Virus record (IMG/VR): IMGVR_UViG_3300037245_004196
DNA: 64,000 nt
Reading direction: 5' to 3' (one strand)
From: an uncultured virus (IMG/VR IMGVR_UViG_3300037245_004196)
Taxonomy: Duplodnaviria > Heunggongvirae > Uroviricota > Caudoviricetes
In this document: positions 3,001-59,000 of the stretch, one piece after another
Layout: the number at the start of each line of letters is the position of its first letter
Position numbering within the stretch: position 1 is the stretch's first letter
Translations under genes and position numbers: made by a program
The notes under the pieces: generated by a model
The model's input: only the letters and a program-made list of their open reading frames with translations
What the model was told of the DNA's origin: nothing
Databases searched by the model: none

Positions 3001-5507
3001 GTTGTTCAATTTTACTTAAAATGAACTGCAAATGTTGTAAATCATCACATTTATAACAACTTACGAAATACCATCGCAATTTTCTTCGTTTGTCCCGAAG
3101 TTTTATATGTAATTTGATTTCCGGATGGTTTTTACATTTATAAATGATACGTGGTTTTTTACATCGTTTTTTGGTCATCTTTTATTTTCTCACAATCTTG
3201 AATTGATCTCCCTTTAAATCATCCGCATATACCTTATTTATTTCAAAATCATCACATGTAAAATATTCAGTGTGTACGTTTCCAAATTTATCATTATCAT
3301 TTGTGATTACCCCATATTTACTACAATCAAGGGTATGATCTAATATATCAGCAATTCCACAAAATTCACAATACTCACATTGATTTGTTCTCCGAAAATT
3401 AGGAGGGAGTGTTAGTTTGGGTTGTTCAATCCAATAATGGGTAGATTGAATGCACTCCAGACATCTGAGGAGAGGATGGGCATAGGACCGTTCTGTATAG
3501 AAAGAGCAATTAATCCGGATGTCGTAGTATTTACATTTTTTCTTTCTTCGGACAAATTCTCCGGGCATTCCTGGATATTTACTACAACCATATTCACCAC
3601 CCCATCGACAATTGGAACAGAGAAACCCTTGGTCCCAAAAATACTCTTCATAGAAACATGCATCTTCATACTCTTCCATGTTATTTATCTTCCAACAATA
3701 GATCTATTTGCAAATGTAATTCTTTCGTGGTATATTCTGCAAGAGGCATTTTAAGATTTAAATTAAATAAAAATTGTCTAAAATATCGCATCTCCTTCAG
3801 AATTGTAAGATAATCCCACACATCAATTTCAGTAGCCATATCTATTTCTCCATTTTTCTTTGATTCTCTTAATAAAAGATTTCCTTTCCTTCATTTTCAC
3901 CATTTTTCCATTTTCGTTTTTATAGACTTTTCCATTACAAAATAGATAGTTTATTTCATAATATCCAGAAAAATCCCAGATTGCAATTGGAGGAGGATAC
4001 ATCAAATCAAGATATTTTTTGATCCAACGTTGAAGTTGCTTAATCCTAAAAACATCTGTAAATACATGACTTCTATGATTGAAATTACCTCGTAATAAAC
4101 GTATTTGGAATAGATAGAAATTTAAATTCATTTTTTTCTTTCTTCTTTCTTCTCCCTCTTTGATTAATTTTTCCAATTTCTCTTGGTTGTCTGTAATCAA
4201 TTGTATAAGTGGAGTTAATGCTTCAGCAAGGACTCCAAATAATGGTGTAATGGCAGATACTAATGCGTCAACTGTTTTTTTCGCGACTTGTTCAATTAAT
4301 TCTTTCTGTTCTAATTTCTCATCATAACCTGGAAGCTTTTTCATTTCTGTTCTACATTTCTCACAGATTTTTCCGGTGTTTTTTGCGGGATCCGTCCCAC
4401 AGAATATACAATTTTCACTCATGTTTTATCGTCCTCTGTTTGTCCATATAATATCTTTAAAAAAGAATCTCGTGTAGTGCTTTGTTTTAATTTCTCAAAT
4501 TGTTCATAAGATAGATGTATATCTGGAAGATCTGTTTTTTTAGAAGTCAAATGAGCAATTACTTCTCCAGAAGGAGAAAAGACTTTTCCTTTACTTTCAC
4601 TCATCTTTAATCCAAATCCCTTTTAATCGTGGAAGAGGAACACAAACATCATGTGCTGTATGTCCGCTTGGTGCAACCATATCTTTTCCTTGTATCTTTT
4701 TTCCACAAAAAAAACACCAACCCACCCAATCCCGCTGGTCTTCACTCATGTATAATCATCCAAATATTTGTCAATGACCCTTTTTCGTAATATAATGATG
4801 CGGTACATGATGGATGTTTGCCAACGACTTACTTCTTTTGTTGCTTCGTTGCGGTGAAAGCCATTAGGAAGAGAATCTCTATAATCCTTTGCCAATTCCC
4901 GCTGAATAATGAAATCATTAATTTCGTCTTCATAGCTCATAAGAATTTCTCCAAAGTTCCCTGAACAATTGGTTTGTCTTTGCATTGAGGACAGGCGCGC
5001 TGTTCTTGAGGTTTTTTTGTTGCGGTATATTTCCATTTAGGTGGTGCGTAATAAAACCAATCGCCAGTACAGCGAGGGCAGTGATAAATTAATTTTTCTA
5101 TTTCCTTCTCAGAATAACCTCCATCAAGAGGATCTTCATTTTCCTTGTGGGTGATAAGGGTTTTGTATGCATTACTCATGCCGAGTCCTCCGCAGTTCTT
5201 TTGTGAACAGTTAACCAACACCAAAAACATAATCCGCATGGCGTTGTAATTCGCAACCCGCAACCTTTACAGAATTTAATCATGTTGATTTCTCCACACA
5301 TTCTTTACAGATCACTGCGGTAAATTCAACGCCTCGAAATTTAAAATTATATGGTAATCCATTAACCGTTCTAATTAATTGGCCACAATGAGGGCAATAA
5401 TCGTAGGATTTTAACGGTGGATCTATCCTGTTTCGAGGGATTCCTGTCGCATGGGAAATATCTTTAATTATCTGATCTTTGAGAGTTTGTTTTGGATGTG
5501 AGTTCAT
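1..5507 (-). other. Co-directional cluster of small hypothetical genes, many with CxxC zinc fingers
   Basis: Abutting minus-strand ORFs (1-264, 261-566, 523-753, 766-1509, 1787-2224, 2221-2574, 2567-2752, 2756-3178, 3182-3679, 3829-4422, 4419-4604, 4746-5036, 4937-5263, 5280-5507), several with ATGA overlaps or GGTGA RBS. Confidence 0.8.
4597..4749 (-). CDS. Small zinc-finger protein, 50 aa (not in ORF track)
   Basis: MSEDQRDWVGWCFFCGKKIQGKDMVAPSGHTAHDVC...; CxxC...HxxC; overlaps neighbours at both ends. Confidence 0.65.
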   Translation of the reverse strand: MSEDQRDWVGWCFFCGKKIQGKDMVAPSGHTAHDVCVPLPRLKGIWIKDE

Positions 5508-5974
5508 TGTTTTATTTCCTCCAAGATGTCATATTCATCTGGTTCTGGTTCTTGAAGGGATGCAATTTGGCGACAAATAATTTTTTCAGGGGCTTGCCGT
5601 TTTCGGTCTTTATTTCGTTGTAATACAACCATTGCAGGAATACGAAAAAGCACCATCTTAATTTCATATTTAAAATGATAAGCAATATTAACATATACTT
5701 GTCTGCGTATTTTCGTGAGATTTGTGCAATCTAAATAAATATCATCTTTCCTTTGAATTGCTCTCATAAATAGACTCATGAGACATTTCCAGACCATATC
5801 TTCAAATTCTGGATCAAATCCATCCTCATCATAATAATAATAATTATTTCTAATTTTATCCGCAGAAATTCGGGATACATAGTTTTTTTGAACGGGTAAT
5901 TTATAAAAATAATATGTTTTTCCACATCCAGCAGGACCAATAGGAATAATGAGACGTGGTCTGCGCGTGATCAT
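5504..5974 (-). CDS. AAA_33 / polynucleotide-kinase-like P-loop kinase
   Basis: Walker A GPAGCGKT, ISADKIR, LDCTNLT..RR, RNKDR motifs typical of PNK-like kinases. Confidence 0.85.
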   Translation of the reverse strand: MITRRPRLIIPIGPAGCGKTYYFYKLPVQKNYVSRISADKIRNNYYYYDEDGFDPEFEDMVWKCLMSLFMRAIQRKDDIYLDCTNLTKIRRQVYVNIAYHFKYEIKMVLFRIPAMVVLQRNKDRKRQAPEKIICRQIASLQEPEPDEYDILEEIKQ

Positions 5975-9919: not shown

Positions 9920-10102
9920 TCATCCATTGTTTATTCCATCTCCTAATTTTTTATTTATTGGACAACAAAGATAATGATAACTAAGGGTTGACATGGTACA
10001 ATTGGACTTGAAATTCAGTAATCGACATTTTCCCGCTGCGAAATGAGCGCACCCTCTTCTTTTGGGGCTACATGTGCATTTAAGTTTAGTCATTTTTTTC
10101 AC
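9920..10102 (-). CDS. Cys-rich small protein, paralog of 47472-47687
   Basis: KCTCSPKRRGCAHFAAGKCRL...SYHYLCC...KLG. Confidence 0.75.
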   Translation of the reverse strand: MKKMTKLKCTCSPKRRGCAHFAAGKCRLLNFKSNCTMSTLSYHYLCCPINKKLGDGINNG

Positions 10103-10807
10103 CTAAAGTATATTTAAAAAATCTTCTATCTTTTTATTTCTAAATTTTTCTTTTATCCAACGTTCGTGTTTCTCAGCTGGAGTCTTAGGCCGTCTTTGGA
10201 AATGATGATTTATTTTAGTATGGCAAGTATGGCAAAGGCAGATCAGATTTGATTTATCCCAGATTAAGAAAAGGTTCTTTTTAGTTAAAGTATGAACTGG
10301 GGTTATATGATGGACTTCAGGTGTTCGAGTTAAACTGCCACACTTTTCACACATACTATAATTACAATAAACATTTTGATCACCGTAAGATCGGATAACA
10401 ACATCAATTCCTTGATCCATTCCTGTTAAAATAATTGCAATCCAATTTTTTTCTATATTGTCCTCAATAATTTCATTTCTAATATAGCTCCAATTATATT
10501 TTAAAATCGCAGCATAATCTCCGGCATGTTTTTTACACTGTCGCTTTTGCCAACTATATTTTCCATCTTTTTTCAATAAGCGCACTCCACACACGCGACA
10601 CACTCTTTCATATTTATGAGAATAATTTTCCAAGGGATAATCTGTGTCAAATACATCGAAATATTCAGCAAGAATATTTCTACTTGACTTAATTATATTT
10701 ACCATGTGTGATTCAAGATGGAAAATACATTTTGGGCAATAAGGAATATAGCTCATTAGTTCAGCTGGATAGTATTTCTTACACGCGCGACATTGTTTGA
10801 CAATCAT
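10103..10807 (-). CDS. HNH endonuclease with zinc fingers
   Basis: CEKCG...EVHHITPV...NLICLCHTCHTKINH. Confidence 0.85.
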   Translation of the reverse strand: MIVKQCRACKKYYPAELMSYIPYCPKCIFHLESHMVNIIKSSRNILAEYFDVFDTDYPLENYSHKYERVCRVCGVRLLKKDGKYSWQKRQCKKHAGDYAAILKYNWSYIRNEIIEDNIEKNWIAIILTGMDQGIDVVIRSYGDQNVYCNYSMCEKCGSLTRTPEVHHITPVHTLTKKNLFLIWDKSNLICLCHTCHTKINHHFQRRPKTPAEKHERWIKEKFRNKKIEDFLNIL

Positions 10808-11163
10808 TTTTCATTTTCTTCCAGGAATTTTAATGCAAATTCTAAACATGTTTTACAAACCCATGTAGTCACCCATGAATCGTTTGGATTTCTCCATTCA
10901 ATAACAGGTTTCTTCTTTTCACAAAGATCGCAAGGCATTTTTTGTTCTATTTTAAATTTCTCTTTTATTTTTTTATATAGAGCATTTGGAATTTTTTTCC
11001 CATCTTCTATATGGTTCCTCAGGAGTTTACGCATCAGCATACTAAAATTAACCCCCTTTTTTACAATATATTTTTCCTGATACGGATGAATCATACACGA
11101 CTTCCTAACCTTCCCTACTGCAAAATCATCATGTTTTTTAACATACTCTCTTTTTTTAGCCAT
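10804..11163 (-). CDS. Ribbon-helix-helix regulator with C-terminal zinc finger
   Basis: VNFSMLMRKLLRNHI helix; CxxC..CxxC; first gene of leftward arm, just downstream of a TATA box. Confidence 0.55.
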   Translation of the reverse strand: MAKKREYVKKHDDFAVGKVRKSCMIHPYQEKYIVKKGVNFSMLMRKLLRNHIEDGKKIPNALYKKIKEKFKIEQKMPCDLCEKKKPVIEWRNPNDSWVTTWVCKTCLEFALKFLEENEK

Positions 11164-11182
11164 GATAATAATTAGTAATAAA

Positions 11183-11196
11183 TTTAAATATTTAAA
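11183..11196. promoter_or_regulatory. Palindromic TATA element TTTAAATATTTAAA; drives leftward arm
   Basis: Minus-strand TTTAAATA begins at 11196, 33 nt upstream of ATG at 11163. Confidence 0.75.
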
Positions 11197-11285
11197 AGTA
11201 TGTAATCAGAGAATTAATAGAAGAATTTTAATAGATGAAATCTTAAAAAATAATTATACTCACCATTTTATCACATATACCCCCT

Positions 11286-11327
11286 GGGAAGGGTAAGGTT
11301 TTACCTCCATATTTCCTTATCCTTCCC
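11286..11327. other. 13-bp stem-loop
   Basis: GGGAAGGGTAAGG / CCTTATCCTTCCC with 16-nt loop. Confidence 0.7.
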
Positions 11328-11328
11328 T

Positions 11329-11481
11329 TTATTTCTTATACGTTTTCGCTAATTTTTCTCTTTCTGCTTTTTCCTCATATTCTCTAACTGATTTAAGGTC
11401 GTCATATTCACCAATAGACAAAAGGACTTTCCAACCTAATTTAAGAAGACCACCAACAGCTAATGCATGTAATAATCCCAT
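11329..11481 (-). CDS. 50-aa peptide with hydrophobic N-terminus and charged C-terminus (not in ORF track)
   Basis: MGLLHALAVGGLLKLGWKVLLSIGEYDDLKSVREYEEKAEREKLAKTYKK; GGAGGT RBS and TATA upstream. Confidence 0.7.
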   Translation of the reverse strand: MGLLHALAVGGLLKLGWKVLLSIGEYDDLKSVREYEEKAEREKLAKTYKK

Positions 11482-11512
11482 ATTTTATTACCTCCTAATA
11501 TAATAAGATAAG

Positions 11513-11526
11513 TTTAAATATTTAAA
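11513..11526. promoter_or_regulatory. Bidirectional palindromic TATA element TTTAAATATTTAAA
   Basis: Sits at the strand switch; predicted starts about 11543 (+) and 11496 (-). Confidence 0.75.
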
Positions 11527-11542
11527 TTTATTCTATTATTAT

Positions 11543-11678
11543 GGAGAAGTGGCTTGATTATTTATTTTGTCTTTTTGGATACGAGTTTTTGGGTGAGACC
11601 ATGACTCGTTTGATTTACCTCGGTTTCCGCCGAGGTCTTGTTTTCGGGTTCTTTTTGAACTCTATCGGGCCATTCTCC
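11543..11678 (+). ncRNA. Putative four-way-junction structured RNA or 5' leader
   Basis: 15-bp closing stem (11543-11558 with 11664-11678, one bulge) enclosing three hairpins; begins at predicted TSS. Confidence 0.6.
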
Positions 11679-11701
11679 CTTGTTTAAGGATGTGAGCAAA
11701 T

Positions 11702-12010
11702 ATGGAATTTGAAATCGTATTTAATAAAATAAGAAATATTGGCGGTATTGCTTATAGAGAGAGTTGGAATCGAGATGAATATATACATTTGGTTATACCG
11801 GACAGACCACTTACTGTTGTCAATGTAAGATTGATGGAGATGAAAAAACCCACGAAGCTGCTTGATTTTGAATTTATACCAAATCAAAACGTAAAAACAG
11901 AATCACACATGGTATTGCCTTATTTTGATAAAATTACAACAGGTTTTATCGAACGAGGATGGAATCCCACCACTCAAGATATGATGGCTAAAGATTGGGA
12001 GACTTCATAA
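11702..12010 (+). CDS. DUF2829 / Tad2-like (Thoeris anti-defence) protein
   Basis: AYRESWN..YIHLV N-terminus and WNPTTQDMMAKDW C-terminal signature. Confidence 0.75.
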   Translation: MEFEIVFNKIRNIGGIAYRESWNRDEYIHLVIPDRPLTVVNVRLMEMKKPTKLLDFEFIPNQNVKTESHMVLPYFDKITTGFIERGWNPTTQDMMAKDWETS

Positions 12011-12280
12011 GATATGAATAAGAAATATTGGAAAAATTTTAAAATATTTTGTTGGAAAATATTTCATTTTTTTTATAAGCCAAATTGTGAATTTTTAGAA
12101 TCCAATCATCTGTGTGCATTCGATTCATTCGCCAACACAGCCCCCTTACACTGCGATACTTCTTATCGAAATAAGTGTATATATCGCGAAAGTGGAAAAG
12201 ATTAATAGAATCGTTTTTTGTCTCATTATTGGCCGCTGAATCAAATTATTTATATGTATTAAAGTTAATACAGTTAATAC

Positions 12281-12442
12281 ATGTCGTCTAAAACTAAAAG
12301 AGAAGGGATTTCATCTATTTCTTTAGATGAGGAAACTCGTCAAATTCTAAAAGAAAGAGAAAAAGTGGAGATCGAAAAGAATGGAGCTTTTAATAAATCA
12401 GCATATTTACGAAAACTGATTAAAAATGATAATGGAAAATGA
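12281..12442 (+). CDS. Small RHH regulator, 53 aa (not in ORF track)
   Basis: ISSISLDEETRQIL...FNKSAYLRKLIKND; TTTATATG box 32 nt upstream; AGTTAATAC tandem repeat at 12263-12280. Confidence 0.7.
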   Translation: MSSKTKREGISSISLDEETRQILKEREKVEIEKNGAFNKSAYLRKLIKNDNGK

Positions 12443-12457
12443 TAGGAGGACATTATT

Positions 12458-14197
12458 TTGGTTAAAGCAAAACAATATACTCTTAAGTATTTCTTAGATT
12501 TGAGTAAGAAGAATAAAGCAATTTATTTTAGGGCGGCCAAAAACACTCACTTCTTTCTTTATAATCAAGGGATCATTCAATTTTTAATAAAAGTGGATGG
12601 AACTGAAGATTGGAAAGAAGTTTATACTTGGAACAATTTTAAATTTACCGGGAGATATCTTCAAAATCACGCGGATAAACCGGAATATTATGTAAATTTT
12701 GATCTGGATGGATTACACTATTATAATTTTTCAATTAAGGACCTAAAGAAAATCTTGTTTGAACATCATCTTAATTTTGGGACAGGAAAATATGCTTTAA
12801 ACAAGTTAATAGCATTAACTTTTAAAAAGGTAAAAATAAAAGAAATTGAAGTAAGGGAAGTAATGGGATTTACAGACAAATGGACTCTTCCAACTGATTA
12901 TTATTTTGACATGTTAAATTTTAGAAGAGAAGCGCGTGAAAATTTTAAAGCAGTTTGTACGATGAAAATTGATGCTGAAGATATCGTTAAAAAATATCGA
13001 GCTCTTTTTAATGCGACAACGATCGAGCATCGAGATCTGGTCTACGCTTATGGTGAAGTTGCACCTTTTTTATATGCTTTTAGAGATAAAATTGGTTTAT
13101 TACCCATACTTGGGCTTAATGGGCCAGCGCAATTAGGAAAAACATGGTTAGCGAAAATTCATACGGTAAAGAAATGGCATACATTTGATACGGTAATTGG
13201 GCCAACAAGTATTCGAACAACAGCTCGTGGTGATTCAATATTTACGCATGGAACACTTCCTGTTTGTATTGATGATGCGGAAAAATTACGTGATGATTTT
13301 TGCGGAATCATAAAAACTTATACTGCAACAGAGGATCGAGCGCGTAAATTAACAGCAGACCGAGGGATTGGAATGAATGCGATTTATTGTACCCCTTTAA
13401 TTTTAACTCATAATGTTTATCCAGAAATGTATGCCGACCCTAATTTTAGACAGAGAGTTGTGATCTTACCAATTAGAACTGTATCTAAATCAGAAGGGTG
13501 GTTAGATCTCTATGATGCAATCCCAGATGGCGCGGTAGGAAAATATGTTATGACACAAACAAAGGATATGACATTTGAAGACATATATTCAAAATATAAA
13601 TCCTTAGATTTAAAAAAAGATTATGATGAAAATCAGATTTCTGTATTCAAAGGTGACAATCGCGCTAATGCGATTCTTAGATTGTTTGCATTAGGAAAAT
13701 ATTTGGCTAAATGGCTTTATAATATTGATTTAAACATTTCATTATTGCCTTCTTTTATCACTTCTTCACGTATAGCTGGTTCTGAAGATTATTATACTCT
13801 TATTGAAAACATGATTAAAATAAGTAATAATTGGAATTGGAAACCTGAAAAAGCAAAAGATTATAGGGCGCATTATTGGGTTAAATCAGAAGTGGAAGAT
13901 GGGGAATTTAAAGACGAATATGGTTATTTTATTAATACTCAAAATCGTAAAGATTTAATGAAATTTATGGGGTTGAAAAAACTTTCTGCGGAAGATTTAG
14001 CGCAGCAGCTAATGGTTAAATGGCCCAAAATTCATAAAGGGAATCATTATATTTCTGGATATAGTATTTTCATACCATTGGAATATTTACAATCTCAATT
14101 ACCTCCCGAAATAGAATCAACAGAAAATGATGAGGAAGAAGAAGAAAATGATACATTAGAAGATGAGATTGCAGGTTTGTTCACTAATGCAGATTGA
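12458..14197 (+). CDS. DUF927-like P-loop replicative helicase/ATPase
   Basis: Walker A GPAQLGKT, Walker B VCIDDAE, sensor LILTHN, FRQRVVIL; acidic tail. Confidence 0.7.
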   Translation: MVKAKQYTLKYFLDLSKKNKAIYFRAAKNTHFFLYNQGIIQFLIKVDGTEDWKEVYTWNNFKFTGRYLQNHADKPEYYVNFDLDGLHYYNFSIKDLKKILFEHHLNFGTGKYALNKLIALTFKKVKIKEIEVREVMGFTDKWTLPTDYYFDMLNFRREARENFKAVCTMKIDAEDIVKKYRALFNATTIEHRDLVYAYGEVAPFLYAFRDKIGLLPILGLNGPAQLGKTWLAKIHTVKKWHTFDTVIGPTSIRTTARGDSIFTHGTLPVCIDDAEKLRDDFCGIIKTYTATEDRARKLTADRGIGMNAIYCTPLILTHNVYPEMYADPNFRQRVVILPIRTVSKSEGWLDLYDAIPDGAVGKYVMTQTKDMTFEDIYSKYKSLDLKKDYDENQISVFKGDNRANAILRLFALGKYLAKWLYNIDLNISLLPSFITSSRIAGSEDYYTLIENMIKISNNWNWKPEKAKDYRAHYWVKSEVEDGEFKDEYGYFINTQNRKDLMKFMGLKKLSAEDLAQQLMVKWPKIHKGNHYISGYSIFIPLEYLQSQLPPEIESTENDEEEEENDTLEDEIAGLFTNAD

Positions 14198-17120: not shown

Positions 17121-17192
17121 GGGAAAATAGTCGAGTGGTCAGACGATCCGGCTCGCCCCGGATGGACGAGGATTCAACTTCCTCTTTTCCCG
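17121..17192 (+). tRNA. Non-canonical tRNA-like element or pseudo-tRNA
   Basis: 7-bp acceptor GGGAAAA/TTTTCCC, TA at 8-9, D arm GTC-GAGTGGTCA-GAC, ATCCGG-CTCGCC-CCGGAT, T arm GAGGA-TTCAACT-TCCTC. Confidence 0.65.
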
Positions 17193-21527: not shown

Positions 21528-23480
21528 ATGGGTTCGGAATTAAGTGAATATTTAGAATCACTTCAAAACACTCCTGAAATTATAGAAAAGAAAACTAAAT
21601 TTGAAGAACTAAATGAACAATTAGTGTCTTCTCAAGATATTGAATTAGATAGTGAGAAACCCTCTCCTACATATTATGATTCTCAAATTGGATTAATAGA
21701 GATTCAAGGACAGATTTATTTTGATGGAGATATTGGGCCAGATGGAGAACTTGTTGAAGCTCCAATTTTAGGTATAAAAGAATGGGCCTATAAATATGAA
21801 GAATTTCCACAAAAAATCATGATTCAAAATCCGCGTAATCGGAAATATTATCAGAAAGAAATAATGCGACCGGCAGAAATAAATGATTTGGAGGTTCGGT
21901 TTCATGAAGAGATGATGGTTCATGATCGAATTTTATTACTTGCGTTTAGGGGTGCGCGTAAATCTACTGCGGGAATGCGTTTTGGTAAAAAGGCAGTCTT
22001 AGATAAAGGCGTAACTCTCGCGTATTTTTCATCCAGTGCAAGCTTAGTTACAGATTATTCAGAAGAAATTAAATCTCAATTTACTTATAATAAACGAATT
22101 CTGAAAGATTATGGTTATATAATTGACGAGAAAAAGACTAAAAGAAAAGATCAAATGTATTGGATGAAACAAAGAAGAAGTGCTGCGCGTGAACCAGGGC
22201 TTGCAGTGGGGTCATCTCCAGGATCTGGAAAAGGGAAAAGTCGTATTGGAGGTCATCCTAATATTTTAATTATTGATGATCCAATCGGAGAAGAACAAGA
22301 AGGTAGTGCGCTCTTACGAAAGAAAGTAGCTCGGTGGTTTTGGAAACAAGTATGGCCTATGCTTACCAGTGATACTCAACTAATCATTATTGGAACTATG
22401 AAACACCCTCAAGATCTTTATAATGAAATTATTGAAAAAGAGATTATGGAAGTCATAAAAATTCGTGCTATTGAAGAATGGCCTAATAATGGGCAAACTG
22501 AAGCATTTTATGAAGTAAAAGAAGGTAAGTGGTATTATACTCGATTTAAAAAACCAAGTGAAAGGAAGGCAAAAATAAGAGGGGTTGCTGGAATTGTTGG
22601 TGGGCGCGCAGGGTTTGATGGATATTTTGAATCTCATTGGAACGATCCTGGGCGCGTACAATATTTTCTTGATGATGATAGTTCACTTGGAATTGATAGA
22701 AATCGAATGGCCCTTCAAGAATTTCTTATTAAACGACATGAAGTTAGTCCGGTTAATTTCGAATATGAATATCAATTAAATGCAATTCCAGTTGAAGCAG
22801 GATACCTGGCCTGGGATAGAATGACTTCTTTTGATTATGAAGATGAGGGCATTCCATCCAAAGAAGAACTCCATTTCAACTGTCAAGCCTTTTTTGACCA
22901 ATCGTTTGGACAATCAAATCGCGCAGATTATTGTGCAATTGCGATAGTAAGTCGAGTAGAAGATGAAATGGAAATTAATCATTATTATCTTCTCGACCTT
23001 AAAGTATGGCGCGGAGGGGGAGTTGGAAAGAAAGAACAAATGATGGCTGCTTTAGCTGAGAAACATCCTTATGTTGAACATTGGGGTATTGAGGCAGACG
23101 TTATAAATTCAGCAGATGCAATCTATTTAAAACAACATTTACCGGAATTAGATATTATTCCAGTATATCAACGCGCTAAGAAAAATGATGAAGAAGAAGG
23201 GGTTGAAAGAACAAAGGTAGTTTATAAATTACCAGATGATATTAAATCAAATAAGAGAGCGAAAATTATCCGTATTTTAAATCAATTAGATGTTCCAATG
23301 TCTATGGGAAGAATCCATCTCTATAAAGGAATCGATCCGGAAGACATGGTTAAATTTAATGCTTGTCGGAATTTTCCAAAGTGTGAGAAATTTGATCCCC
23401 TTGATGCAAAAGGGTCTGCAATGGAAATGTGCGATAATAACCAATCATTTAAAGATTGTTTTTGGGACCACAATAATTAA
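21528..23480 (+). CDS. terL: Terminase large subunit
   Basis: Walker A AFRGARKST, Walker B ILIIDDP, IIIGT motif, EYQL, RNase H-like FFDQSFG...DYCAI, terminal D..DA. Confidence 0.92.
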   Translation: MGSELSEYLESLQNTPEIIEKKTKFEELNEQLVSSQDIELDSEKPSPTYYDSQIGLIEIQGQIYFDGDIGPDGELVEAPILGIKEWAYKYEEFPQKIMIQNPRNRKYYQKEIMRPAEINDLEVRFHEEMMVHDRILLLAFRGARKSTAGMRFGKKAVLDKGVTLAYFSSSASLVTDYSEEIKSQFTYNKRILKDYGYIIDEKKTKRKDQMYWMKQRRSAAREPGLAVGSSPGSGKGKSRIGGHPNILIIDDPIGEEQEGSALLRKKVARWFWKQVWPMLTSDTQLIIIGTMKHPQDLYNEIIEKEIMEVIKIRAIEEWPNNGQTEAFYEVKEGKWYYTRFKKPSERKAKIRGVAGIVGGRAGFDGYFESHWNDPGRVQYFLDDDSSLGIDRNRMALQEFLIKRHEVSPVNFEYEYQLNAIPVEAGYLAWDRMTSFDYEDEGIPSKEELHFNCQAFFDQSFGQSNRADYCAIAIVSRVEDEMEINHYYLLDLKVWRGGGVGKKEQMMAALAEKHPYVEHWGIEADVINSADAIYLKQHLPELDIIPVYQRAKKNDEEEGVERTKVVYKLPDDIKSNKRAKIIRILNQLDVPMSMGRIHLYKGIDPEDMVKFNACRNFPKCEKFDPLDAKGSAMEMCDNNQSFKDCFWDHNN

Positions 23481-23481
23481 G

Positions 23482-23495
23482 TTTAAATATTTAAA
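23482..23495 (+). promoter_or_regulatory. Palindromic TATA element TTTAAATATTTAAA
   Basis: 33 nt upstream of ATG at 23515. Confidence 0.7.
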
Positions 23496-23514
23496 GTTAT
23501 TATAATTATATATT

Positions 23515-25038: not shown

Positions 25039-25547
25039 ACCTTTTTTCTTTTTTACCACCAAATATGAGATGAATAAAAATGTCAGAAACTAAACGAACC
25101 CCACAAGAATTTCAGAAGGATGTCTTTCTCTCCAATATCTTAGATGTTTTATGGAGACACGACATTAAAATGAAAGAATCCCACCAGATGTCCAAGGAGA
25201 TCATGGCTAATCTACAAGAATGTTTTTATTTTCTTCATAAGGTGTATTAAATTATGATTCAACTAAAACTAACTGAAATGAATTTGTGTCCTTTTCTCTT
25301 GGACCGAATCAGTTCTACTATTATTGAATGTTCAGTGGCCGGATTTATTGATGAAGTAGATTGTAAGGCCTGTGAATTAAAACAAGATTTATTAAAAAAT
25401 AAGGAGGGAAAATAATGCAAGAAGAAGAATATAAAATGCGAATTCAATGTCCACATTGTGAAAAATTTATTTGGGTATTATTAAAGAAAGAAGTGCAAAA
25501 AGAAGAATAAGTTAATTTTTAAATAGTAATATTGTATTTATTATCTT

Positions 25548-25720
25548 GGTAGTCCATACTTAGCGGCATCGAGTCATATCCACTCGGTTATCTCTTGGAG
25601 TTCAGTCCGAGAGTTTTTTTCTTATGATCGCACCAGAAGATTTCCCTATTCCAAACGTTGACCTCGGAGGATGCGCCCTTTAGGGGACCGATAGATGAGC
25701 AAGGCGGGGGGAATCGAATT
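25548..25720 (+). ncRNA. Putative structured RNA upstream of portal
   Basis: GC-rich island; TTTAAATA at 25518; hairpins ATCGAGT/ACTCGGT and CTCTTGGA/TCCGAGAG; further stem 25639-25715; T-runs. Confidence 0.5.
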
Positions 25721-25808
25721 ATTTTTTTCCTAATTTTAACCAATCTTTTTATTTTTAAAGTAGATATAATATAAGTATAACTAAGTAATATTTTTAGGAA
25801 TTTAAAAA

Positions 25809-42859: not shown

Positions 42860-42862
42860 ACA

Positions 42863-42876
42863 TTTAAATATTTAAA
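42863..42876 (+). promoter_or_regulatory. Palindromic TATA element TTTAAATATTTAAA
   Basis: Fourth exact copy; no long ORF follows. Confidence 0.65.
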
Positions 42877-43158
42877 TTTCTATAATTTATTTACACAAGG
42901 TTGGGAAGAACCCAATCTTCAAATTTTTTTCAGGAAATACCCCTAAAAAATCGGAATGCTCCCAATGTGAAAACTTGTCCTTTTGTCCTACAACCGGAAA
43001 AACCACCCCCTTTTTTTCTCTATTTTTAACTCCCTTATTTTTTCTCTTCATTATTTCATAAATTAAAAACCAATACTTTTAAATATTCTAATTTCCTACA
43101 TTTAAATATTATAATTTATTTATGATCTCAATAAATTATGATAAGGTGATTTTAAAAA

Positions 43159-57788: not shown

Positions 57789-59000
57789 TTAGACATTGAC
57801 CATAATGAATTGTTGTTCAAGATAATAGATGTTGACCTTAAGATCATACACGTCATCAATTTGATTATCAATATCTTGATTCAATTTTCGCATTGCTTCA
57901 ATCGTTTTATTCGCTTTTTCCCAATCTCCCTTTGAAACCTGTTTTTGAGCGCGCTTTTTACTTTTCGTTAATTTATTTCTTTTACCCGTAATTAATTTGT
58001 TTCTTTCAATCAGAAGATCAGAAAAATCTTTCATTTCGATTTCAATTCCCTCAAGTTCAAGCTCTTTCTTTTCCATTTCTTCATTAAATTCAAGATCATT
58101 ACTGATTTCCCGATCTATTTTGGTTATTTCGTCTTCTTCTTTTGGACGGCCATAATCATCATAATCATCGTCTTCTTCCTCGTCTTCTTCAACCCTTGGA
58201 GCCAAGAAATAATTTAAATGGGATTGACCAAACAACTTAACTTCAATTTTTAAGGGAACATCAGTTCTTAGAGATAAATCAACACTCGCGGATTTATATG
58301 CTTTTGAATTAGGTGTCCCAAAAATTAAACCAGATTTAAGAACCTGATTTAGAAATGAGAGTGCAAAGACACCCTGAGAATCATTACATACATCAAAATT
58401 ATTCAATTGATCGCTTTTCATTACATTTTTATATTTTCCCATAGTTCCATTATTTGAGAAGATAACACTTTCGTCTTTTACTTCAATTTCTAATACGTCC
58501 GCGACAACGTCTGCGTCCCCCACTATTTCTTTAAGATCCACAAAATTCATATTAAGGGAATTATCAAATTCCATCTCTATTAGGCCATTCATTTCTAAAT
58601 CTTCTTCTTCTACTTCAATATGACCCAAACTAAAATTTCGCGATTTTTTCCGGCTTTCATTCTTAAAGATAATATTCAAATATTTATTTTGAGAAAAATC
58701 AAAAACCAAAGTATCATCTATTTTCCCGCGCTTTAAAAATTTGTTCAAATCACTTATGTTAATACCAACTTCAAGATCTTTCATATATCCGAAGGAATCC
58801 ATATCTTCCTTTGCAATAAAAAGATCTACTAAACAAATGTGGGAAAGATCTAAAGTAGTGAGTTTTAATCCTTCTTCTGTTAATTTCAAAATACATTCTT
58901 CTTTGATAGAACCTACTGCATTGAATAAGGCTTGAATTTGTTTCATCCTTCCACCAATTGCAATTATTCCATTTTCTGTAATCAAACTAAGTTTTTCCAT
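57789..59000 (-). CDS. pcna: PCNA sliding clamp with C-terminal acidic linker and coiled coil
   Basis: EGLKLTTLDLSHICLVDL, GINISDLNKFLKRG, DVPLKIE, YFLAPRVE. Confidence 0.93.
   Translation of the reverse strand: MEKLSLITENGIIAIGGRMKQIQALFNAVGSIKEECILKLTEEGLKLTTLDLSHICLVDLFIAKEDMDSFGYMKDLEVGINISDLNKFLKRGKIDDTLVFDFSQNKYLNIIFKNESRKKSRNFSLGHIEVEEEDLEMNGLIEMEFDNSLNMNFVDLKEIVGDADVVADVLEIEVKDESVIFSNNGTMGKYKNVMKSDQLNNFDVCNDSQGVFALSFLNQVLKSGLIFGTPNSKAYKSASVDLSLRTDVPLKIEVKLFGQSHLNYFLAPRVEEDEEEDDDYDDYGRPKEEDEITKIDREISNDLEFNEEMEKKELELEGIEIEMKDFSDLLIERNKLITGKRNKLTKSKKRAQKQVSKGDWEKANKTIEAMRKLNQDIDNQIDDVYDLKVNIYYLEQQFIMVNV

Follow-up and report, generated by a model that had tools for sequence, protein, structure and literature searches.

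Structured RNAs next to promoters and ribosome-binding sites are known from bacteria and their phages. In ompA-type stabilisers of bacterial and phage mRNAs the 5' end is paired from the first transcribed base, riboswitch aptamer domains place a closed multi-helix junction directly upstream of a ribosome-binding site, and the put antitermination RNAs of lambdoid phages such as HK022 fold right after an early promoter; among viral RNAs with several helices, the phi29-type pRNA and the 5' cloverleafs of RNA viruses come to mind. To our knowledge, structured non-coding RNAs of archaeal viruses are almost unexplored, and a literature search at abstract level found no paper on such an element in them. 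Here we describe a 136-nt element, positions 11543-11678, in a 64,000-nt stretch of DNA (the window) from the uncultured tailed virus IMGVR_UViG_3300037245_004196, which most probably forms the 5' leader RNA of a Tad2-like gene. The part of PMC13700489 on which we draw describes Tad2-like proteins as inhibitors of several defence systems and reports one such protein in a tailed virus assigned to Asgard archaea.

An earlier note on this DNA, made by reading the letters, had proposed a promoter-driven four-way-junction RNA at the strand switch and had named the RNAfold z-score and an Rfam comparison among the checks. We followed up this proposal by folding statistics, family searches, an analysis of the promoter geometry and an evaluation of an open reading frame (ORF) that overlaps the element.

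An exceptionally stable predicted fold

Folding of the element by RNAfold gave a minimum free energy (MFE) of -53.1 kcal/mol, compared with -31.7 +/- 3.4 for dinucleotide shuffles (z -6.24), and none of the 200 shuffles was as stable, so the z-score came out in favour of the proposal. The locus also stood out from the rest of the virus. When local structures with a span of 160 were collected by RNALfold from both strands of the 64 kb and scored by support-vector-machine (SVM) z-scores with a cut at z <= -3, 11543-11679(+) took first place of 337 on both measures (z -6.96, energy -53.9), compared with top values of z -5.43 and energy -46.0 at unrelated loci. A grid scan with 136-nt pieces (step 15, both strands) likewise placed the locus first, even out of register. 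In an ungapped inverted-repeat scan, P1, the closing helix of the element, was not among the 25 of 122 pairs listed.

P1 joins the two ends of the element, and its 15 bp, single bulge and two G-U pairs were as the earlier note had read them from the sequence. The two U-G pairs are consecutive (11554-11668 and 11555-11667), and pair probabilities are at least 0.96 in 12 of the 15 pairs (0.35, 0.68 and 0.79 in the remaining three). Within P1, the hairpins ACGAGT/ACTCGT, ACCTCGG/CCGAGGT and GGGTTC/GAACTC listed in that note were all recovered, as P2, P3 and P4, and the U-rich linkers were found as well, the element consisting of 42% T and 15% A. RNAfold places a further, weak 4-bp hairpin (P1a) inside the first linker; the closing stem with three strong hairpins was thus retained, while the junction became formally five-way instead of four-way. 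P1a has pair probabilities of about 0.9 at 37 C and is gone at 80 C, and the predicted architecture is unchanged between 4 and 60 C. One dominant fold prevails (ensemble diversity 7.0 over 136 nt). The GC content of the element is 43%, its best 80-nt section reaching 50% against a mean of 33 +/- 6% for the stretch, and P3 was flagged as terminator-like by a consensus scan. Taken together, we consider it highly probable that the structure is real rather than accidental, that is, a selected nucleic-acid structure.

Predicted promoter and transcription start

The TATA motif TTTAAATA at 11513-11520 (+) is one half of a palindrome, TTTAAATA being present also on the minus strand at 11526-11519, and G11543, the first base of P1, lies 30 nt from the start of the plus-strand motif. 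The exact 30-nt distance claimed by the earlier note was therefore reproduced and the geometry fits a promoter-driven RNA, with the RNA itself being predicted from the sequence. The palindromic motif of 20-24 nt occurs in four copies, with near-identical ones at 11177-11196, 23478-23501 and 42862-42879. It consists of two back-to-back TATA boxes, and its position between divergent genes at two of the four sites points to a common bidirectional promoter layout or to a site where a regulator binds. Used as a search pattern, the palindrome was found at 16 viral loci, mostly on large or giant-virus contigs.

To place the start, we listed all ATG-started ORFs of at least 40 codons with a TATA-like 8-mer no more than 90 nt upstream, which yielded 14 rows with TATA-to-ATG offsets of 25, 28 (the ORF overlapping the element), 32, 33, 33, 34, 39, 45, 58, 68, 72, 72, 81 and 81. 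Offsets of 32-33 nt belong to 38162+ (1165 aa), 23515+ (a 61-aa zinc-ribbon-like ORF) and 11163- (119 aa, a called gene preceded at 33 nt by the palindrome copy at 11196(-)); in addition, the 53-aa gene 12281+ was found by eye to lie 32 nt from a one-base TATA variant at 12249. There is no ribosome-binding site between TATA and ATG in 11163-, 23515+ and 12281+, whereas 38162+ has AGGTGA; genes with longer offsets carry ribosome-binding sites, AGGAGGT before 11481- and GGTGA before 43159+. A spacing of 30-33 nt from TATA to start in the leaderless-type genes places the start at 11543-11546, within the first bases of P1. We infer from this geometry that transcription starts at 11543-11546, in which case the ATG at 11541-11543 would be cut off.

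The Tad2-like gene and its ribosome-binding site

The earlier note had located the element at a strand switch leading into a Tad2-like gene, and both points hold: up to 11481 the genes lie on the minus strand, from 11702 to about 56.7 kb they lie on the plus strand, and the element sits within the 220-nt gap between the two sets. The encoded protein scores 43.3 bits against PF11195 over residues 1-100 (cut-off 25, E 5.3e-11). Its sole PDB sequence match is weak, namely 8kbi, annotated 'Inhibitor of Type II CRISPR-Cas system' (E 0.59); sequence searches of PDB with the two proteins next to the element, this one included, gave E-values of 0.59 and 0.36 only. The start region of the gene mirrors the AGGAGGT-led start of the divergent 50-aa gene, the two forming a 30-nt inverted repeat that is 73% complementary.

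The element ends 8 nt before the ribosome-binding site AAGGATGTGAG of the Tad2-like gene. Accessibility of this site was evaluated by partition-function folds of 11543-11760, in which the element adopted the same structure as in isolation. The mean unpaired probability of 11686-11704 was 0.28 with the element and 0.32 without the leader, so the element is predicted not to mask the site. When the 5' strand of P1 was removed, the freed 3' strand paired with the ribosome-binding site (duplex -7.4 kcal/mol) and the value for the GGA core dropped from ~0.4-0.5 to ~0.1; since the freed strand covers the site, P1 may act as a lock against a competing sequence.

Oligo-T runs are archaeal termination signals. 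A T8 run follows the Tad2-like gene and likely ends the transcription unit, and T7 runs close other promoter-led non-coding stretches of the virus. The arrangement of promoter, leader, gene and T8 thus points to a likely unit made up of the promoter, a 159-nt leader, the Tad2-like gene and the T8 run (Table 1). Downstream of the gene, 12032-12074 holds an AT hairpin with the T8 run, followed by a GC-richer non-coding stretch, the TATA variant at 12249 and the ATG at 12281; a 63-codon ORF also lies in the gap to the 53-aa gene (12014-12280, +), and the collection of 15 billion proteins introduced below does not contain it.

Table 1. Positions of the element, its parts and other features of the window
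Feature	Position	Strand	Remark
Whole structured element	11543..11678	+	136 nt, 43 predicted pairs: 21 G-C, 15 A-U, 7 G-U
P1, 5' strand	11543..11558	+	15 bp with 11664-11678, G11549 bulged
P1a, weak 4-bp hairpin	11569..11580	+	in first U-rich linker; holds T5 run 11572-11576
P2 hairpin	11581..11609	+	7 bp, internal loop, 3-bp tip, 6-nt loop; T5 run 11586-11590
P3 hairpin	11617..11636	+	8 bp, G+C-rich, 4-nt loop, then U-rich tract
P4 hairpin	11646..11662	+	6 bp, U5 loop = T5 run 11652-11656
P1, 3' strand	11664..11678	+	nt 122-136 of the element
Palindromic bidirectional TATA-type promoter motif	11508..11531	both	plus TATA 11513-11520, minus TATA 11526-11519
Overlapping ORF, probably untranslated	11541..11687	+	48 codons, ATG 28 nt from TATA start
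Shine-Dalgarno-like AAGGATGTGAG and ATG of Tad2-like gene	11686..11704	+	AAGGATGTGAG 11686-11696, ATG 11702
Tad2-like gene, 102 aa	11702..12010	+	Pfam PF11195, E 5.3e-11; called gene
T8 run	12067..12074	+	57 nt after Tad2-like stop codon; putative transcription-unit end
Divergent 50-aa gene	11329..11481	-	in protein collection, AGGAGGT-led, other face of palindromic promoter
PCNA-type clamp	57789-59000	-	PCNA_N E 3.8e-12, PCNA_C E 3.4e-8
Large terminase			PHROG 38, E 7.8e-32
Portal			E 4.8e-12
HNH endonuclease and 3'-5' exonuclease			family matches among the ORFs of the stretch

Searches for known families and relatives

Rfam 15 (4227 models) was searched with a family call requiring a score at or above the gathering threshold. 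Over the whole 64 kb this yielded only a tRNA at 17121-17192, in agreement with the earlier note, whose author had recognised no known family in the element. Between 11300 and 11900, only MIR2275 (19.7 bits against a gathering threshold of 60.5, E 0.66) and Histone3 (12.5 bits, E 4.8) appeared at E <= 10; both are sub-threshold and were judged to be chance matches. ARAGORN reports 17121-17192 alone and nothing at 11543-11678, and no tRNA-clan model matched the element at E <= 10. Four-way-junction self-cleaving and other ribozyme classes are represented in Rfam, and none of their families appeared at E <= 10. Inspection by eye led us to reject a box-type guide RNA, kissing complementarity between the hairpin loops and, within P1, a bulge-helix-bulge processing site. 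The tRNA has a non-standard anticodon arm, with either a 6-bp stem and a 6-nt loop or 5 bp and an 8-nt loop; it scores 47 bits in Rfam on the plus strand, and ARAGORN could not assign its anticodon.

A covariance model built from the single sequence (170.5 bits against itself) found no second copy in the 64 kb, the next score being 13.7 bits antisense to a gene, and on 31 fetched loci it found the seeded hairpin only. Searches with parts of the element were equally negative: the P3 18-mer occurred at four viral loci, all unrelated on alignment; the two P1 strands with a gap as a pattern occurred at none; the 22-mer of P4 and P1 was absent from metagenome contigs; and the P1 18-mer occurred at 11 genome loci, the 3' partner being present in 0/11. 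Comparison of 11300-12100 with phages by blastn gave no match. Among sequencing runs, one DNA run with matching sequence and no RNA run came up; the former is a marine sediment metagenome, possibly the source, in which one source-like contig and no variants were found at 80% likeness.

Relatives of the virus were also sought through its proteins. No relative was confirmed by a viral-contig search guided by the Tad2-like protein, the large terminase (TerL) and the 579-aa product of a neighbouring gene (12458-14197, +); tblastn of TerL and the 579-aa protein against phages gave no match. The latter protein has a GxxxxGKT ATP-binding motif, read from the translation, and gave no Pfam, PHROG or PDB match. 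Only one relative cluster was found among 5.8 billion clusters (P0002/P0007, 74% identity, encoded on two short contigs), and an alignment of the protein with P0002 matched nothing in metagenome or genome contigs. It may be a replication helicase or initiator of a very isolated virus lineage.

A putative 5' leader RNA

The element is most probably an autonomously folding 5' leader RNA of a short early Tad2-like mRNA. The RNA would be made from the plus-strand face of the palindromic archaeal-type TATA promoter, starting at about G11543. Its very 5' end would pair with nt 122-136 to form the 15-bp stem around the three strong hairpins and U-rich linkers, and transcription would continue through the ribosome-binding site into the Tad2-like anti-defence gene, probably ending at the T8 run at 12067-12074, to give a ~530-nt monocistronic transcript with the 159-nt leader. 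With its 5' end hidden in a long helix, the early anti-defence mRNA could be protected or tuned, and the 3' strand of P1, part of which is complementary to the ribosome-binding site, would be locked away so that the site is kept open; the three U5 tracts might in addition cause partial early termination. We tentatively propose that the element is a cis-acting module which shields the 5' end and adjusts expression. What our calculations show is how exceptional the fold is, which strand it favours, how it is placed relative to promoter, ribosome-binding site and T8 run, and that the overlapping ORF looks non-coding.

Several observations weigh against this reading. The element is a singleton in all collections searched, and protection would need a simple hairpin only, which leaves the elaborate junction unexplained. 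The start is a prediction; were it 2 nt further upstream, the transcript would carry the ATG and the overlapping ORF could be translated without a leader. The low codon score of this ORF is shared by some accepted small genes (0.013 for 9920-10102). The spacing rule rests on few genes, and 10093- has its ATG 25 nt from a TATA-like 8-mer, which we take to be incidental, as AGGTGA intervenes and the 8-mer falls within the final part of the gene upstream. A sigma-70-like pair (TTTAAA, 18 nt, TATTAT) fits 11513-11542, and with a bacterial host the RNA would start inside P1. The plus strand also folds significantly as DNA (z -4.3). Finally, the element holds three T5 runs (11572-11576, 11586-11590 and 11652-11656), or 22 per kb, whereas the sense strand of 29 long genes has 70 such runs in 31,089 nt (2.25 per kb) and the composition of the element predicts about one. 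A host polymerase that stops at T5 would make few leaders of full length; either the host needs longer runs, such as the T7-T8 found where transcripts are likely to end, or the transcript is attenuated by its own leader.

Alternative explanations

The same RNA could act in trans. It might be cut from the mRNA or released by early termination, persisting as a small, stable RNA that would help the virus early in infection, for instance as a platform that binds proteins or as a decoy, while being co-expressed with the Tad2-like protein. This would account for a compact 136-nt module that folds independently of the ribosome-binding site and whose two ends meet exactly in the closing helix, and for a junction more elaborate than simple 5' protection requires; U-rich single-stranded linkers and a U5 loop would be typical of protein binding, and the other promoter-led, T7-closed non-coding stretches (25518-25730 and 42863-43015) raise the possibility that small non-coding transcripts are usual in this virus. 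However, no oligo-T run follows P1, the next run of at least six T being the T8 at 12067, and no processing motif was seen by eye at the base of P1. Nor did a Pfam scan of 94 ORFs reveal a reverse transcriptase, a Ro-type protein or another obvious RNA partner. We regard a trans-acting RNA as unlikely.

It is decidedly unlikely, in our view, that the stability has no function and is a by-product, a compositional island or a relic of an older sequence that folds by chance. The singleton status of the element would fit such an origin, z-scores have heavy tails in the 64 kb (other loci reach -5.4), and a U-rich, G-rich sequence profits from G-U pairing. Against it stand the first rank among 337 by both energy and z, the failure of any of 200 shuffles, 400 synonymous permutations or 400 recodings in viral codon usage to reach the same stability, the placement of the element, which begins within 1-2 bases of the predicted +1 and stops 8 nt before the ribosome-binding site, and a GC content that is higher at every codon position.

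Whether the folding molecule is RNA or DNA was assessed by comparing the two strands. As RNA, the reverse complement reached -37.2 kcal/mol (z -5.07) compared with -53.1 on the plus strand, the weaker fold arising because the seven G-U pairs turn into C-A mismatches. With DNA parameters, the plus strand gave -17.5 kcal/mol (z -4.3, 0/200 shuffles as stable, ensemble frequency 0.0002), whereas the minus strand gave -14.3 (z -2.5) with 4/200 shuffles as good and an MFE structure without P1. A double-stranded cruciform is therefore unlikely and was rejected as a candidate: both strands would have to fold equally, while 7/43 pairs are G-U and the minus strand lacks P1. The argument of the earlier note that the G-U pairs favour plus-strand RNA over a DNA cruciform is borne out by these values, and plus-strand RNA most probably fits best.

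There remains the plus strand as single-stranded DNA, folded as a replication priming or initiation signal beside the 579-aa ATP-binding-motif gene. The significant DNA fold with none of 200 shuffles as stable is in its favour, as are the cumulative GC-skew minimum in the 10-12 kb bin, where gene orientation and skew switch, and the 579-aa gene 780 nt downstream. As DNA, however, the fold amounts to -17.5 kcal/mol only, at the low ensemble frequency given above, and the missing P1 on the minus strand speaks against a cruciform form of the signal. The region 10800-12600 holds no iterons or repeat arrays except the promoter palindrome, its other repeats being two-copy and at chance level; the flanks are AT-rich, and the 2-kb bin of the element also contains the skew minimum. 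The skew changes where the coding strand does and may simply follow it, and the element sits exactly at the predicted transcript start. We consider a DNA signal quite improbable.

A new class of viral regulatory or anti-defence RNA, either a leader that senses an immune signal or protein or a decoy made together with the sponge protein, is a very improbable reading.

As the earlier note had remarked, an overlapping ORF of about 48 codons exists (11541-11687), and it could be translated from a leaderless mRNA, the structure then being secondary. Its ATG at 11541 lies 28 nt from the TATA start, its frame is open to 11687, and the virus has leaderless-type genes and many small proteins. The ATG is, however, 4-5 nt nearer to the TATA than in four leaderless-type genes, and the ORF does not resemble a gene of this virus: GC by codon position is 0.44/0.33/0.50 compared with 0.45/0.33/0.24 in the 29 long genes, and its codon log-odds score is 0.018 per codon compared with 0.47 +/- 0.18 for 48-codon in-frame chunks of these genes, none of which scored as low. 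An open frame is not remarkable in such a sequence, since in composition-matched shuffles (15% A) the given frame was open in 12.5% and at least one of three in 36%. Hydropathy over a 19-residue window peaks at 1.25, and both hydrophobic stretches contain charged residues. A word-based search found no homolog, phmmer gave 0 at E <= 0.001 among 1.84 billion representatives, and the ORF is not gene-called and is absent from a collection of 15 billion proteins in which the Tad2-like, 50-aa, 53-aa and 119-aa neighbours are present. An antisense 45-codon ORF likewise has no homolog and is absent from that collection. A small protein-coding gene was rejected on these grounds (foreign codon usage, no homologs, no gene call), and the alternative offered by the earlier note is weakened.

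The fold was also compared with sequences that preserve the peptide. Permutation of synonymous codons gave -34.9 +/- 3.6 against the native -53.1 (z -5.1; 0/400 as stable, best -52.6), and recoding with the codon usage of the virus gave -25.6 +/- 3.7 kcal/mol (z -7.4; 0/400 as stable). Since the native fold is an outlier among synonymous recodings, it is no by-product of the peptide, even if the ORF is translated. The ORF is probably not translated, and a small protein as the reason for the locus is highly improbable.

Equally little credence is due to a riboswitch-like mechanism, in which the junction would bind a small molecule or protein, alter read-through at the U5 tracts or the balance between P1 and the ribosome-binding site, and so turn on the Tad2-like sponge. 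In its layout, a multi-way junction closed by P1 just before a ribosome-binding site, the element is reminiscent of aptamer domains; the 3' strand of P1 without its 5' partner is predicted to pair with that site (duplex -7.4 kcal/mol), and the Tad2-like family binds immune signalling nucleotides according to PMC13700489 and other literature. On the other hand, no Rfam riboswitch family matched even at E <= 10, the stability of the 15-bp P1 makes switching improbable, the element as a singleton offers no conserved positions that would mark a binding pocket, and the ensemble, with its diversity of 7.0, revealed no competing fold of similar energy.

A bacterial host with P3 and its U-tract as an intrinsic terminator in a promoter-proximal leader is just as hard to credit: the consensus scan did report, besides a sigma-70-like promoter (11513-11542), two terminator-like hairpins where 0.5 were expected (11617-11636 and 11630-11647), but the virus encodes a PCNA-type clamp, TATA palindromes lie 32-33 nt before start codons of genes without a ribosome-binding site, the promoter scan found fewer sites than shuffles (2 vs 4.4), and P1, the feature that stands out most, would be truncated by a bacterial start near 11549.

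Genome setting

The stretch has a GC content of 33%, and its sequence suggests an uncultivated tailed virus with archaeal-type signals, as judged from the PCNA-type clamp and the promoter pattern. The proposed archaeal-type host draws on the PCNA_N and PCNA_C matches, the TATA and leaderless pattern, and the oligo-T runs after non-coding stretches. Most of the remaining ORFs had no family match in the Pfam and PHROG scans. The clamp is 403 aa long, with the PCNA domains at residues 25-268 and a C-terminal extension of ~135 aa that has no family match. A protein encoded at 5504-5974 (-) is AAA_33 or polynucleotide-kinase-like (Pfam 1.1e-17; PHROG 505 'polynucleotide kinase', 7.8e-15), which hints at an RNA-repair function in the virus.

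Two further intergenic regions were noted. The ~300 nt before the portal gene (25511-25808, +) contain no plausible ORF, a TATA at 25518 and T7 runs at 25614-25620 and 25723-25729; the GC content reaches 56% at 25632-25711, the second-highest 80-nt peak of the 64 kb. This region looks like one or two small promoter-driven non-coding transcripts, although the fold of 25548-25730 is not unusually stable (z +1.2) and has no Rfam match. At 42862-43015 (+), a palindromic TATA is followed by two ORF-less stretches that each end in T7; the first, ~42893-42930, contains a single clean hairpin, and the second is 42931-43015. Both may represent additional small transcripts, and the fold of 42893-43020 is not unusually stable either (z 0.16).

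Significance and comparison with known systems

The structural prediction is well supported but comes from one genome, and the element is a solid, though unproven, candidate; its transcription, its start site and every functional step are what we infer. If real, it would be a compact, very stable leader module placed exactly at the start of an early anti-defence transcript, and it would open a way to study how the first mRNAs of archaeal viruses are controlled or protected. The boldest reading, if true, would couple RNA-based sensing or decoying to a sponge protein and add an RNA layer to the counter-defence of archaeal viruses.

Among the systems described, the tRNA and tRNA-like cloverleafs, including the 5' cloverleafs of RNA viruses, share a closing stem with three hairpins; the element differs by its 15-bp closing stem, its linkers of 7-10 nt and its extra weak hairpin, and it received no tRNA call from ARAGORN or Rfam. 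The phi29-type pRNA is likewise a viral RNA of ~120-170 nt whose ends are paired in a long helix below a multi-helix junction. That junction is three-way and carries two mutually complementary loops, whereas the element shows no complementary loop pair by eye and no Rfam match; the large terminase and portal of its virus are of the ordinary kind, and the genome measures at least 64 kb. With the HK022 put RNAs the element shares a stable structure right after an early promoter and oligo-T runs that have to be passed (T5 three times, then T8). The put RNAs consist of two stem-loops acting on the bacterial polymerase, and the element resembles them neither in sequence nor by model; we know of no put-like antitermination mechanism for the archaeal polymerase.

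Riboswitch aptamer domains come closer in their general plan, with a closing helix, a junction with three hairpins and a place directly upstream of the ribosome-binding site. The element has no Rfam riboswitch match and gave no indication of an alternative fold, and its P1 is far longer than the usual switching helix. The ompA-type 5'-terminal stabilisers are simple bacterial hairpins, while the element is a 136-nt multi-branched module of an archaeal-type virus with a putative stabilising effect; the likeness lies in a 5' end paired from the first transcribed base, action in cis and an accessible ribosome-binding site, all of which are predicted for the element.

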